Positions 29,393 to 32,676 of a stretch of 64,000 nucleotides of DNA are shown here, in pieces (the first letter of the stretch is position 1; each line of letters begins with the position of its first letter). The position numbers were made by a program, and so were the translations under genes. The DNA lies in NCBI GenBank assembly GCA_044375465.1, contig JBILMN010000002.1:20633-84632 (forward strand). Direction: 5' to 3'. The stretch comes from Oligoflexales bacterium (GTDB taxonomy: Bacteria > Bdellovibrionota_B > Oligoflexia > Oligoflexales > RGVZ01). The notes below the pieces were generated by a model that was not told where the DNA came from, ran no database searches, and saw only the letters and a program-made list of their open reading frames with translations.

Positions 29393-30562
29393 TCATACAA
29401 AATTGCCGCGTTTGATTTTCTCGACGATAATTTTTTCGGCCATCTGGGGGTCTCGCGGGGCGACCGCATAGTAGGCCTGCTGCTCACAGCGACGTTTGTT
29501 TTTGTATAGCCACTCCAAAATTTCGGCCAAGCCTCTGTTGCGTTTATCTTTGAAGAATGGGTCGTTCTGGAGAGCATCTTTAGCCTTTTTGAGGGCCCGA
29601 GCTTCAGATGGATCTTTGTCATTCACAGCATAGTCGTTGAGATCGTATTTTTTGATGTCCTCGGGCAGAACGCCAAGAAATTTAACCTCAGGCGCTGAAA
29701 AATCACTATTGCGGATGAGTGATGAGGCGGATCCTGCCTTCAGGGTCCGGTAGATGTTTTGAATCGTATAGGCGTCGAGGTCACCGTAGAAATAAAGCGG
29801 GATCTTCAATTGGTCCTGGATGCGTTTGGCCCAGCCGCGAACGGCATTGGATGGGACACCGCCGGCGCCGATGATGATCGAATTATGGCGTTTGGTAAAA
29901 CCATTGGCAACCAGGGTGTTGGCCGTGCCTTCGGACTCGATGATGATGCCGAAGTCGATTTTCTTTTTAGCTTTAAGTTGCAGATTTTGTGGACGGTTTT
30001 TGGGTTGAAATGGGGACGTGCCGAGCTGGCTTAGATCAATCACGGCCTCGGTCCCATCGGCGAGGGTTTCGGTCACTACAAGCTGCTGAGAGTAAGTCTG
30101 CCCACCGCGGTCATTGGCAAAACAGTTCATCTCCTCTCGATAGGCTTCAATCATTTCGCAGATGAAATCAATCACCTCGTCGGACTCATCCTGGTCAGCG
30201 AAGTCCAGGGCTTTGAGGATTGGATTATGCTTAATTTCACCTTTACTGATGTAGTAAAGCTCACGCTTCGTGTTGACGTTGCCGGTCTCAAGATTGCGCA
30301 ACAGGACTTCCAGCATAAAGATCGCCCGTGACATTTTTTTGACGGAGCTGACATTAAGTTCAGTGCTGACTTTCTTATCTCCCGGAGTCAAAAATCCGAG
30401 ACGATGGTCGTAGAGCGAATTGTCCAGACTACACTTAGTGGCCTTCAGAATCGGGCGGCGGGCTTTCTCCAAGTCTGTGAGCATGCTGTCACACAAGGAC
30501 AGACATTGCTTCATGATGTCAGTATTGATGCGGCCTTTGCGCGGGGAATGAGTGGATGCCAT
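29393..30562 (-). CDS. top6A: DNA topoisomerase VI subunit A (Spo11/Top6A family)
   Basis: TKRELYYISK (catalytic Tyr motif), DQDESDEVIDFICEMIEAYREEM, Toprim glutamate IIIESEGTANTLV and acidic pair YFYGDLDAYTIQ; 389 aa. Confidence 0.85.
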   Translation of the reverse strand: MASTHSPRKGRINTDIMKQCLSLCDSMLTDLEKARRPILKATKCSLDNSLYDHRLGFLTPGDKKVSTELNVSSVKKMSRAIFMLEVLLRNLETGNVNTKRELYYISKGEIKHNPILKALDFADQDESDEVIDFICEMIEAYREEMNCFANDRGGQTYSQQLVVTETLADGTEAVIDLSQLGTSPFQPKNRPQNLQLKAKKKIDFGIIIESEGTANTLVANGFTKRHNSIIIGAGGVPSNAVRGWAKRIQDQLKIPLYFYGDLDAYTIQNIYRTLKAGSASSLIRNSDFSAPEVKFLGVLPEDIKKYDLNDYAVNDKDPSEARALKKAKDALQNDPFFKDKRNRGLAEILEWLYKNKRRCEQQAYYAVAPRDPQMAEKIIVEKIKRGNFV

Positions 30563-30585
30563 AATTCTGATGACCTCTTACGGTT

Positions 30586-32676
30586 TTATTTCTTGGGAGC
30601 CGCTTTTTTGGGGGCTGTGGTTTTTGCAGTTGCTGCTTTTTTGGTTTGTTTTTTAGTCGTCTTATTCTCGGGCGCTTTGGCGCCTTTTTGGGGCTTGGGT
30701 TCTGCGGCGGCTTTTTTGATTTTTTTGCTTTTTTTGATTTTTATTGGCTTTTCCGGAGCAAAAACACTCAAAATATCGACCTTCTTGGAGGGTTTTGATG
30801 CTTTTTTGGGCGTGGCGATTTGACTGGCGCCATCAGAGTCGGCCTCATCGTCTTGGTTCGCGCCTGCTGTCGATGACTTAGCTAATTCATCAGCTGATTC
30901 TTCAGCTGATTCTTCAGCTGATTCTTCAGCTGATTCTTCAGCTGTTGGCTGACGCGATGCCTCCAGTGCCGAGTCTTCATCACGGAAAGCCTTGAGGCGT
31001 TTTTTGCGGGCCAGATTGGCTTCATCGAGAGCCGTTTCTGCCGATGCCAATTTGGTTTGAGCCTCGTCCGTATCGCGTCCTAGAATTTTCTTCAGGCCGT
31101 CGTAGGCCGCAGTCTTGCGCTTTTCAGGGCTTTTTGTGATGCGAACCAGAGTGTCGACGAGGACGGGGCCGAATTTTTCGATGTGTTGAATCTTTTCTTC
31201 AAGATCGGCAGCCTTGGTTTCCCTCGATAAATGTCGTGACAGCCTTTGTCCAGCTTGCATGAGCGCGCGACGAATTTCTTCGACAAGTTCATCGGAGGCG
31301 TCAATCGTCTCCTTCGACGCGTTCTTAAACTTGATGAAAGGCGACACAATGGAGACGGCTAAGATGTAAGGGCCTGTCGGAAGCGCGTCTTTGGGTTGCC
31401 TCAAGCCGTATGACCGCCAGTTTACGGTCGTGATGGCTTTGACAATGGCGCAAGCGGCCTTATCAAACTGTAAGGGCACCCGGTTGGCAAATCGCAGCAC
31501 CTGAACCGGCTCATCGCCATCAATGCCGCCACCATGGATTCGAGCAATGGCAACCTCGACCTGTACGGGCTTGAAGTCACAAATCGTTGGCTTTCTTGTG
31601 GCTACGGCGAAAAAATCGATCTCGCCAAGGCGCTCCACGGATAGAGACATGGCATCTTCGCCGATGCTGACCACGCTTTGAGTGCTTGGAGCCATGAGTT
31701 GTGTGGCCTGCACTGCCGCATAAACTGATTTCAGATGCTCATCCGATATTGATTCCATGCCCTTATCGAGCAGTCCTTGGGGCAAATTTTGCGCCTTGAA
31801 CATGTCGGTAATCACTTTGTCGCTCATCCGTGAAAAACCTGTTTTGAGCCAGGTCTGCAGTTTCGTTCTGCCAAACAACCGCGCGTGGGCCAGAAATTCT
31901 CCAAGTTTCATGGTGTGCGGATGAGGTTCTGTGGCCTCTGGCACATGCGGCACGTCTTTGGTGACACGCTCGTAGGTGGCAGAGCCGACCTCCGGCAGTG
32001 TGTAATTCAACGTCATATGTGGATTGACCAGGACATTTCCGCGGAGGTAGGACAGCAAACCCGCTTCGCCATTCAGTTGAACCCGCCCCTCCATAATAAA
32101 TTCCACAGAGGTTCCATTTGGTCGGTTCCAGTCTATGGTTTGGCGATCCCGCACGATGCCTTTATTGTTTTTGAGATCCACCTCAATCGAGCAGGTCACA
32201 GCTTTGCGTTGATCTTTTGTTTTGGTGATGACTCGTACCGGCGTGGCTGTGGTTTGCAGAGCCCAAGTCGTGGCTGCTGAGATGCCAATACCCTGTTGTC
32301 CCCGGCTACAGCGACCACGTCCAAACTTGGAGCTGGCCAAATATTCACCAAAGACCTTCGAAATATCGTCTTCCGGGATCCCTGGTCCGTTGTCGTCCAC
32401 GACAATCCGCAGACGATCGGTGTTTTTCATGGTGCCAGCACCAAGTTTTTCGATGTTAATGTTAATTTCGGGAAGTATCCCGTGGTCTTCACAGGCATCA
32501 AGACTGTTGTCCATAGCCTCCTTGACGGTGGTCAAGACGGCTTTGGTTGGTGATGAAAATCCAACTTGTTGCAAGTTTTTTGAAAAATATTCGGCCGTTG
32601 AGCTTGAGGTGATCTTTTTTCCTGCCCTTGCCTTGGGGGCTTCTTCAACCTCTGCTTTTGCTGACTTTTTAGTCAT
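30586..32676 (-). CDS. top6B: DNA topoisomerase VI subunit B (GHKL/Bergerat ATPase) with a long acidic-then-basic C-terminal extension
   Basis: AEYFSKNLQQVGF, TTVKEAMDNSLDA (N box), VVDDNGPGIP (G1), SRGQQGIGISA (G2), transducer region; 696 aa ending in (AEES)4 and a K/A/P-rich tail. Confidence 0.87.
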   Translation of the reverse strand: MTKKSAKAEVEEAPKARAGKKITSSSTAEYFSKNLQQVGFSSPTKAVLTTVKEAMDNSLDACEDHGILPEININIEKLGAGTMKNTDRLRIVVDDNGPGIPEDDISKVFGEYLASSKFGRGRCSRGQQGIGISAATTWALQTTATPVRVITKTKDQRKAVTCSIEVDLKNNKGIVRDRQTIDWNRPNGTSVEFIMEGRVQLNGEAGLLSYLRGNVLVNPHMTLNYTLPEVGSATYERVTKDVPHVPEATEPHPHTMKLGEFLAHARLFGRTKLQTWLKTGFSRMSDKVITDMFKAQNLPQGLLDKGMESISDEHLKSVYAAVQATQLMAPSTQSVVSIGEDAMSLSVERLGEIDFFAVATRKPTICDFKPVQVEVAIARIHGGGIDGDEPVQVLRFANRVPLQFDKAACAIVKAITTVNWRSYGLRQPKDALPTGPYILAVSIVSPFIKFKNASKETIDASDELVEEIRRALMQAGQRLSRHLSRETKAADLEEKIQHIEKFGPVLVDTLVRITKSPEKRKTAAYDGLKKILGRDTDEAQTKLASAETALDEANLARKKRLKAFRDEDSALEASRQPTAEESAEESAEESAEESADELAKSSTAGANQDDEADSDGASQIATPKKASKPSKKVDILSVFAPEKPIKIKKSKKIKKAAAEPKPQKGAKAPENKTTKKQTKKAATAKTTAPKKAAPKK
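30891..30944. repeat. perfect 12-nt tandem repeat (CAGCTGATTCTT x4, plus partial) inside top6B
   Basis: Read directly; encodes AEESAEESAEESAEES on the minus strand; the unit is a multiple of 3. Confidence 0.9.

Follow-up and report, generated by a model that had tools for sequence, protein, structure and literature searches.

A topoisomerase VI gene pair in an Oligoflexales-like member of the Bdellovibrionota

The 64-kb stretch of DNA analyzed here (the window) comes from an Oligoflexales-like member of the Bdellovibrionota and contains two adjacent genes, top6B and top6A, whose products resemble the B and A subunits of topoisomerase VI (Topo VI). The locus raises the question of whether the pair encodes a genuine type IIB topoisomerase that is part of the resident chromosomal machinery of this lineage, or an enzyme that has been altered, recently acquired, or put to another use. 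The reading favored here, with a probability of roughly 0.88, is that of a type IIB topoisomerase resident on the chromosome, inherited vertically and made from a top6B-top6A operon. As such it is largely ordinary, and adds one uncultured Oligoflexales genome to a phylum in which Topo VI was known before.

Identity and conservation of the gene pair

A first-pass annotation of the sequence had placed a complete Topo VI at 29393-32676, as a B-then-A operon, and both open reading frames (ORFs) do lie there on the minus strand. The features of the pair, in window coordinates with the strand in parentheses, are:

30586-32676 (-): top6B coding sequence, 696 amino acids (aa) plus stop (from the ORF and its translation), with a GGAG Shine-Dalgarno sequence about 8 nt upstream of the ATG
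30563-30585 (-): B-A spacer of 23 nt, with an AAGAGG Shine-Dalgarno sequence ahead of the top6A ATG
29393-30562 (-): top6A coding sequence, 389 aa plus stop (from the ORF, its translation and Pfam)
32677-32901 (no strand): divergent intergenic region between top6B and a nitronate monooxygenase gene (nmo), the presumed operon promoter region
32152-32529 (-): GHKL (Bergerat-fold) ATPase core, Top6B residues 50-175 (Pfam), whose ATP site comprises E53 and N57 (N-box), D95-x-G97-x-G99, and the ATP lid G126-QQGIG-131
31702-31989 (-): H2TH region, Top6B residues ~230-325 (contiguous alignment to 2q2e_B and 2zbk_B; boundaries approximate)
31192-31689 (-): transducer domain, Top6B residues 330-495, with W420-R-S-Y423 (WKxY motif) and switch lysine K455 (Pfam Topo-VIb_trans)
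30125-30340 (-): 5Y-CAP/winged-helix domain, Top6A residues 75-146, with R100 and the catalytic Y104 in K99-RELYY-104 (Pfam TP6A_N)
30251-30253 (-): codon of Top6A Y104
29462-29947 (-): Toprim domain, Top6A residues 206-367, with E209 and D261-L-D263 in GDLDAYT (Pfam TOP6A-Spo11_Toprim)

Judged from sequence, both subunits are those of a genuine Topo VI, because profile hidden Markov models, matches to solved structures and residue-level alignment agree. The profile searches that the first-pass annotation had proposed as a check matched the expected Top6A/Spo11 and Top6B families in both Pfam and NCBIfam. Top6B matches HATPase_c, HATPase_c_3 and the whole of Topo-VIb_trans (positions 1-159 of 159, E 5.7e-46) in Pfam and scores above two NCBIfam equivalog cut-offs, those of NF003218 (526.8 bits, cut-off 274) and TIGR01052 (401.7 bits, cut-off 380.7). 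Top6A matches TP6A_N (48.4 bits, cut-off 26) and TOP6A-Spo11_Toprim (120.3 bits, cut-off 24.1, E 1.1e-34). Among solved structures, phmmer aligned Top6A with Methanocaldococcus jannaschii Top6A (1d3y, E 5e-32) and residues 18-511 of Top6B with Methanosarcina mazei Top6B (2q2e_B, E 1e-86), and a sequence search of the PDB with both subunits returned solely Topo VI A and B chains.

The catalytic residues are intact as well. Every motif that had been quoted for the two subunits is present in the translations, KEAMDNSLDA, VVDDNGPGI and RGQQGIGIS in Top6B, and NTKRELYYISKG, GIIIESEG and YGDLDAYT in Top6A. Conservation was taken from alignments of 76 Top6A and 70 Top6B sequences extracted from loci (numbered L0xx) fetched from a species-representative genome collection; all of the catalytic residues, whose loss would have spoken against the annotation, are present and either invariant or at least 0.99 conserved. 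In Top6B, the GHKL motifs align with their counterparts in M. mazei and Saccharolobus shibatae, with E53, N57, D95, G97, G99 and G126-G131 conserved at 0.99. On the alignments to the archaeal chains, an H2TH domain lies between the GHKL and transducer domains. In the transducer, K455 (in "ASKET") aligns with the lysines of "SKD" and "GKE" in the two archaeal structures; W420, Y423 and K455 are the same in every sequence, and R421 is conserved at 0.87. The "KRELYY" of Top6A aligns, through R100 and Y104, with the R and Y of the M. jannaschii "LREAYY", and K99, R100, E101, Y103 and Y104 are invariant. In its Toprim domain "IIESEG" aligns with "AIETSG" of 1d3y and "GDLDAYT" with "TDGDPYG", so that E209 corresponds to the Toprim glutamate and D261 and D263 to the M. 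jannaschii DxD. The first-pass annotation had correctly remarked that GDLDAYT differs from the archaeal D-x-D-P-x-G, but the departure is harmless. The metal-binding DxD is kept, only P to A and G to T differ, and E209 and the heptapeptide G260-DLDAYT-266 are invariant in all 76 Top6A relatives, so GDLDAYT is a fixed signature of the clade and not a sign of decay.

The two genes can be read as a single operon, B before A. In each of the 78 fetched loci with sequence upstream of top6A, top6B is immediately upstream, at a spacing between -38 and +143 nt; L010 and L038 are outside this count, as their contigs end too near top6A. The operon promoter presumably lies within 32677-32901, although it is placed there without having been located, since a promoter scan of the minus strand of this region gave no consensus sigma-70 site.

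Relatives are encoded by at least 428 GTDB species representatives, and of the best 80 nearly all bear the label Bdellovibrionota, Oligoflexia, Bacteriovoracia or Bdellovibrionia. Freshwater metagenomes supply the nearest Top6A proteins, at 92-98% identity; the closest genome records (up to 92%) are metagenome-assembled genomes (MAGs) labeled Oligoflexales or Pseudobacteriovorax; Oligoflexus tunisiensis, Bacteriovoracia, Bdellovibrionia and Bdellovibrio MAGs follow at 74-81%. The description of Topo VI as sporadic in bacteria, given at first pass, thus holds for bacteria overall and fails for the host phylum, where the enzyme is widespread; since it has also been published already for Bdellovibrio bacteriovorus, its presence here is less of a surprise than had been supposed. 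Among ten genes compared, none is as conserved as Top6A. Relative to L003, identities are 89% for Top6A, 86% for NuoH, 84% for Top6B and 68% for Mfd; relative to the more distant L013, they are 78% for Top6A, 69% for Nmo, 68% for Top6B, 50% for Mfd and 48% for LptF/G. Strong purifying selection on the pair across the phylum is shown by these comparisons.

Three loci with Bdellovibrionota-type top6BA carry other labels, L006 and L009 ("uncultured Polynucleobacter sp.") and L045 ("candidate division WWE3"). The first two share the window synteny (nuoH, gpsA, cinA, nmo, top6BA, mfd), and all three labels are probably binning or labeling errors.

The crossing-sensor loop and C-terminal tail of Top6B

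The first-pass annotation saw the departure from the archaeal enzymes in GDLDAYT. A departure exists, but it is elsewhere, in the loss of a basic KGRR loop and in a long low-complexity tail, both in Top6B:

32059-32091 (-): KGRR-equivalent loop, Top6B residues 196-206 (EGRVQLNGEAG), with L201-N-G-E204 at the KGRR positions
30589-31056 (-): low-complexity tail, Top6B residues 541-696 (156 aa), disordered
30880-30944 (-): 12-nt tandem repeat, 5.4 copies with 96% matches, encoding an acidic (SAEE)n repeat (Tandem Repeats Finder)
30748-30777 (-): conserved island D634-ILSVFAPEK-643, inside the variable tail

In M. mazei Top6B, the loop K186-G-R-R189, located in the transfer-segment cavity, senses DNA crossings, and its mutation abolishes supercoil relaxation (Wendorff & Berger, PMC5922973). 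The segment running from "GT" to "YL" is equally long in M. mazei and in the window Top6B and was aligned by phmmer without gaps; the replacement of KGRR by LNGE is also found in a MAFFT alignment with M. mazei, S. shibatae, L081, L082 and L086. The sequence GR[IV]QLNGE[AG]G is nearly invariant in the 70 family Top6B proteins and is present in the 57% identical outlier L086 too. Elsewhere the loop is basic, as QKGLR in the nearest outgroup (L081), RRSR in the archaeal L082 and KAKSR in S. shibatae. The divergent Topo VI-B-like proteins of L083-L085 likewise have no basic loop, so a KGRR-type loop is not universal in the wider family. All of the literature matches listed for KGRR together with topoisomerase VI concern archaeal or meiotic proteins and none treats bacterial ones; the clade-wide replacement of KGRR by a conserved, non-basic QLNGE(A/G)G appears to be undescribed.

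Such a replacement could mean that the chemistry or regulation of this enzyme, though derived from Topo VI, has changed and that it is no general relaxase. It might then be a specialized decatenase gated by the Lys-rich tail or a partner protein or, at the extreme, a regulated maker of double-strand breaks comparable to the meiotic Spo11/TopoVIB-like complexes. The ungapped alignment of KGRR with LNGE, in a QLNGE(A/G)G that is itself conserved throughout the clade, fits this idea, as do the loss of strand passage in M. mazei KGRR mutants (PMC5922973) and the absence of KGRR from meiotic TopoVIB-like proteins (PMC11077084, PMC11347134). The other basic residues that contact DNA are partly kept. 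By hand mapping, two of the three in the H2TH domain are retained (M. mazei R263 as K278, K268 as R283) and one is not (K308 as Q326); in the basic stalk, which binds the G segment, K401 corresponds to R421, K399 to the non-basic N419, and R457 to Q477, with R478 adjacent. An altered enzyme is nonetheless unlikely. Unlike the TopoVIB-like proteins, Top6B has all of its residues for ATP binding and hydrolysis and its switch lysine intact and invariant, and an essential catalytic cycle would agree with how extremely conserved both subunits are. L083-L085 are without the basic loop too, and many members of the clade are without the long tail, which can therefore be no general substitute for it. 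Identification with the Topo VI-like complex of meiosis (Spo11 with a TopoVIB-like protein) was rejected, the GHKL domain not being degenerate and the ATP residues being intact; only the absence of KGRR is shared.

Beyond residue 540 of Top6B, conservation falls to 0.06-0.29. The tail opens with a conserved helical stretch ending in KKRLKAFRDED; residues 541-625 are acidic (net charge -11), and the last 71 residues (626-696) are rich in Lys, Ala and Pro (net +20). Across the phylum, Top6B ranges from 555 to 780 aa, and both presence and length of the tail vary, from none (Top6B of ~555 aa) to ~240 aa of AKTK-type repeats in Oligoflexus. A topoisomerase with a Lys/Ala-rich low-complexity C-terminal extension, comparable to residues 626-696, is also known in the actinobacterial topoisomerase I (TopA); in Streptomyces the lysine-repeat extension stabilizes the enzyme-DNA complex and raises processivity (PMC5714199). 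TopA differs in being a type IA enzyme of another lineage, with no homology, and the likeness is a functional analogy only. By that analogy, the Lys-rich part of the tail might, speculatively, add non-specific affinity for DNA.

Within this variable sequence lies DILSVFA(P/S)EK, near-invariant between changing flanks in the window and in all but one of the eight relatives closest to it; the exception, L009, carries the looser KILEVFAAE. In the window the motif-bearing peptide is KKVDILSVFAPEKP. Tails of other subclades have QLGLF, QMELF (C-terminal), QE[ATV]FDF, QEELF, QTSFNL (C-terminal) or QLELPL instead, and most of these tails have no aromatic residues outside the motif. The bacterial consensus for binding the beta sliding clamp, which these motifs resemble, is QL[SD]LF or QLxLxL. 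Of 79 tails, 11 carry Q-type clamp motifs, where shuffling gives 3.8 +/- 1.9 (P ~0.0005, in a test that ignores relatedness). Because shared ancestry is left out of that test, and because the DILSVF of the window has no Gln, the resemblance stays a lead (for clamp-binding penta- and hexapeptides, see also PMC5397184 and PMC12309361). The DILSVFAPEK island is, more generally and speculatively, a candidate short linear interaction or docking motif. Both it and the tail appear to be undescribed.

Genomic setting and origin

The pair sits in core chromosome. The window includes the S10, spc and alpha ribosomal operons, secY, adk, rpoA, lptF/G, mfd, gpsA, nuo genes and pilBTC. The immediate surroundings of top6BA are:

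25547-29140 (-): mfd
29141-29392 (-): spacer of 252 nt between top6A and mfd
29189-29162 (-): sigma-70-like site for mfd, TTGCCA-16-TATAAT, 11 of 12 matches, 22 nt before the mfd GTG
29215-29244: perfect tandem repeat with a 13-nt period, TAACTGTCGAAGG (2.3 copies), just upstream of the promoter-like mfd site (Tandem Repeats Finder)
32902-33906 (+): nmo
33921-35066 (-): cinA-like gene
35063-36094 (-): gpsA

The four flanking genes are those named at first pass, and the judgment that the pair is resident, with no integrase or transposase nearby, agrees with what was found. No integrase or transposase domain was detected by Pfam in 49 scanned ORFs of the window (most of its 58 ORFs of at least 150 aa, plus one of 100 aa); a tRNA scan found no tRNA gene in the window, and an Rfam scan gave no match. 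GC content and GC content at third codon positions (GC3) of both top6 genes match those of neighboring genes. Given the host-like composition, the core-gene surroundings and the lack of mobile-element genes, top6BA is chromosomally resident and not recently mobile.

Recent foreign cargo, brought in from an archaeon by horizontal transfer or by a mobile element and standing apart from the core machinery, is accordingly very improbable here, more so than an altered enzyme. Topo VI is patchily distributed among bacteria, which has been put down to several transfers from archaea (PMC11302465), and this would suit such an origin, as would the restriction of the wider order (nmo, top6B-top6A, mfd, two peptidyl-prolyl isomerase genes, lptF/G) to the closest ~15 loci. 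Against it stand a GC and GC3 indistinguishable from those of adjacent core genes, the absence of any integrase, transposase or tRNA among the window features found, and the presence of the pair, with a Top6A 74-98% identical, across classes of the phylum. After clustering of a library at 50% identity, a single full-length representative, 57% identical, stands for the whole family, and the next full-length relative is at 34%. Any transfer from archaea therefore predates the radiation of the phylum. Topo VIII and Mini-A, which are B-A fusions or A-only and are found on plasmids, proviruses and viruses, were ruled out, as there are two separate genes here, on core chromosome.

That the genes are instead the GHKL-ATPase and Toprim-nuclease pair of an anti-phage defense system (for example Wadjet JetD-like), an alternative the first-pass annotation had itself raised, is scarcely credible and is refuted at the sequence level, leaving the Topo VI identity in place: Top6A does have a weak local PADLOC match to the Toprim region of JetD (17.6 bits, E 3.7e-4, residues 207-276), a region whose fold JetD and Topo VI-A share, but Top6B has no PADLOC match at E ≤1, topoisomerase profiles score 390-527 bits over full length, the proteins possess both the 5Y-CAP tyrosine and a transducer that includes the switch lysine, and the neighbors are housekeeping genes with no other defense genes flanking the pair.

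There are also more distant Topo VI-like proteins. The outgroups were a small set of six loci, fetched by exact protein look-up and without taxonomic labels. Three of them have Topo VI-like B/A pairs with Top6A 28-32% identical: L083 (2494-5086), L084 (115-3144) and L085 (2437-5131). L083 and L084 have a virus-like look, with many short genes lacking Pfam matches around the pair; in L084 the B subunit is split into a GHKL ORF and a transducer ORF, and L085 is also without the WKxY tryptophan. Nine proteins of 830-1060 aa (P0172, P0192, P0194, P0198, P0199, P0214, P0217, P0225 and P0231) have a Top6A-like region at one end, and no Top6B-like part was detected in them. A tblastn search of 72,556 plasmids with the Top6B core matched only three haloarchaeal replicons annotated as Topo VI-B and one from Synechococcus, where the match is weak, partial and on an unannotated stretch.

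Downstream of top6A, the proposal that mfd has its own promoter fits the strong sigma-70-like site in the 252-nt spacer. No terminator-like hairpin was found by scanning after top6A in the window (RNA fold z 0.63, not significant), so transcription might run on into mfd. The closest relatives have a terminator, a GC hairpin plus T-run, directly after top6A, and in L008 two genes on the opposite strand, for a secreted-looking protein of 243 aa and one of 145 aa, lie between top6A and mfd (11171-12660). The adjacency of top6A and mfd is thus a local deletion in the window genome and not a conserved functional link, and functional coupling of top6BA with mfd was rejected.

Several other features of the window may be recorded here. 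The nuo cluster at 36079-43698 (+) is of membrane-arm genes only, in the order nuoA (Oxidored_q4), nuoH, nuoJ, nuoK, nuoL and nuoM, followed by a third Proton_antipo_M gene, presumably nuoN; no nuoB-G or nuoI, the genes of the peripheral arm, stand between nuoA and nuoH, so complex I is either split or a partial module. At 43775-48536 (-), an ATP-binding cassette (ABC) set (ATPase, ABC-2 permease, ABC_transp_aux/GldG-like, DUF4340) resembles gldAFG of the gliding-motility type. Type IV pilus genes pilB, pilT and pilC are at 54362-58470. No Pfam match at E ≤1e-3 was obtained for six ORFs of 160-320 aa: one each at 51245-51949 (-), 53463-54269 (+), 59852-60814 (-) and 61081-61776 (-), and two at 58584-59638 (+). 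The latter two (58584-59066 and 59063-59638) come directly after pilC and could be unrecognized pilus components.

Proposed role and significance

By homology, two Top6A and two Top6B chains would form an A2B2 enzyme. Top6B would dimerize on ATP by way of its GHKL domain, where E53 would serve as the general base and N57 would bind Mg, together with the GQQGIG lid and the switch lysine K455, and the dimer would capture a transfer duplex. Y104 of Top6A would cleave the gate duplex with the help of R100 and of the Mg site in the Toprim domain (E209, D261, D263); the transfer duplex would go through the break, which would then be resealed. A2B2 assembly, strand-passage activity and a role as decatenase can be inferred in this way. 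The most likely cellular job is decatenation of replicated chromosomes together with removal of positive supercoils and precatenanes, which in most bacteria is the role of topo IV. It is proposed because B. bacteriovorus, the cultured species of the phylum with a topoisomerase inventory, is reported to have gyrase and Topo VI and to lack topo IV.

In B. bacteriovorus, Bd2864/65 carry the Topo VI annotation, and the enzyme was noted in a 2023 review (PMC11318664). Allen & Maxwell (2024) list the Pseudobdellovibrionaceae among 17 bacterial families with Topo VI, all of which have gyrase, while topo IV is found only in members of the Terrabacteria and Pseudomonadota; Bdellovibrio is tabled in neither and is reported to have gyrase without topo IV (PMC11302465). 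Topo VI in bacteria without topo IV was rationalized there as the missing decatenase, with the remark that its bacterial role needs more work. In vitro, M. mazei Topo VI is a preferential decatenase (PMC8837201).

The enzyme of B. bacteriovorus HD100 (Bd2864/Bd2865), with the other bacterial Topo VI cataloged by Allen & Maxwell, is the closest known system, of the same phylum, with the same two subunits and chromosomal. The window host belongs to an uncultured Oligoflexales-like lineage, and the likeness is drawn through MAG relatives; Top6A of the Bdellovibrio-labeled MAGs L034, L038 and L046 is 76-79% identical to that of the window. The 156-aa acidic and basic tail of the window Top6B is absent from many Bdellovibrionia and Bacteriovoracia versions. 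With the archaeal enzymes of known structure (M. mazei 2Q2E and 9O0G, S. shibatae 2ZBK, M. jannaschii Top6A 1D3Y), the pair shares the domain orders GHKL-H2TH-transducer (B) and 5Y-CAP-Toprim (A), all catalytic residues, the switch lysine, a WKxY-type motif (WRSY) and the B-then-A gene order. It differs from them in overall identity, which is only ~20-35%, in having LNGE for KGRR and DLDAYT for DGDPYG, and in the C-terminal region of M. mazei Top6B, which is unmatched, the alignment stopping at residue 511 and the low-complexity tail taking its place. Topo IV (ParC/ParE) has the same proposed role, that of an ATP-dependent type II decatenase behind replication forks, but its architecture is unrelated, being type IIA with three gates, a 4-nt stagger and a DNA gate of the GyrA/ParC type; apart from the GHKL and Toprim modules, the sequences showed no relationship.

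Several points weigh against a resident enzyme of ordinary function. The best NCBIfam equivalog match of Top6A, NF003335, scores 390.5 bits, just under the cut-off of 424, although it is near full length (residues 22-387 against model positions 24-371 of 373). The AlphaFold2 model of Top6A, built on a shallow alignment of 26 sequences that are all at least 75% identical, has low confidence (mean predicted local distance difference test score 56, predicted template-modeling score 0.53). Compared with the PDB by Foldseek, this poor model has 10 matches at E <1e-7, all 10 of them Topo VI-A or Spo11, and the next match is at E 0.02; template-modeling (TM) scores are just 0.4-0.6. The idea that the pair replaces topo IV rests on one published relative, and searches of the literature turned up no bacterial Topo VI that had been studied biochemically or genetically. 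Finally, as KGRR is absent throughout the clade and essential in M. mazei, sensing of the transfer segment must differ, or activity could be altered.

A more far-reaching reading joins these departures, making the Bdellovibrionota enzyme a mechanistically distinct branch of Topo VI in which the LNGE loop stands for KGRR and many lineages, this one included, have gained a tail whose Lys-rich part binds DNA and whose island docks a partner. The partner would be the beta sliding clamp or some other replisome or chromosome-organizing protein. This reading is doubtful, if less so than an altered enzyme. If it were true, docking would put the only decatenase of the phylum directly behind replication forks. 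The combination of variable tails with a conserved short motif suggests lineage-specific recruitment.

The finding as such matters little, and only the KGRR-less loop and the tail motif might repay more work. The clade provides a natural test of the crossing-recognition model derived from the archaeal enzyme. The role of bacterial Topo VI is an acknowledged open question (PMC11302465), and Bdellovibrio is genetically tractable, so these points are testable. For the Bdellovibrionota themselves, Topo VI looks less like a sporadic acquisition than like a gene pair that is core to the phylum as a whole and evolves very slowly, with a Top6A more conserved than NuoH, Mfd or LptF/G in the same loci.

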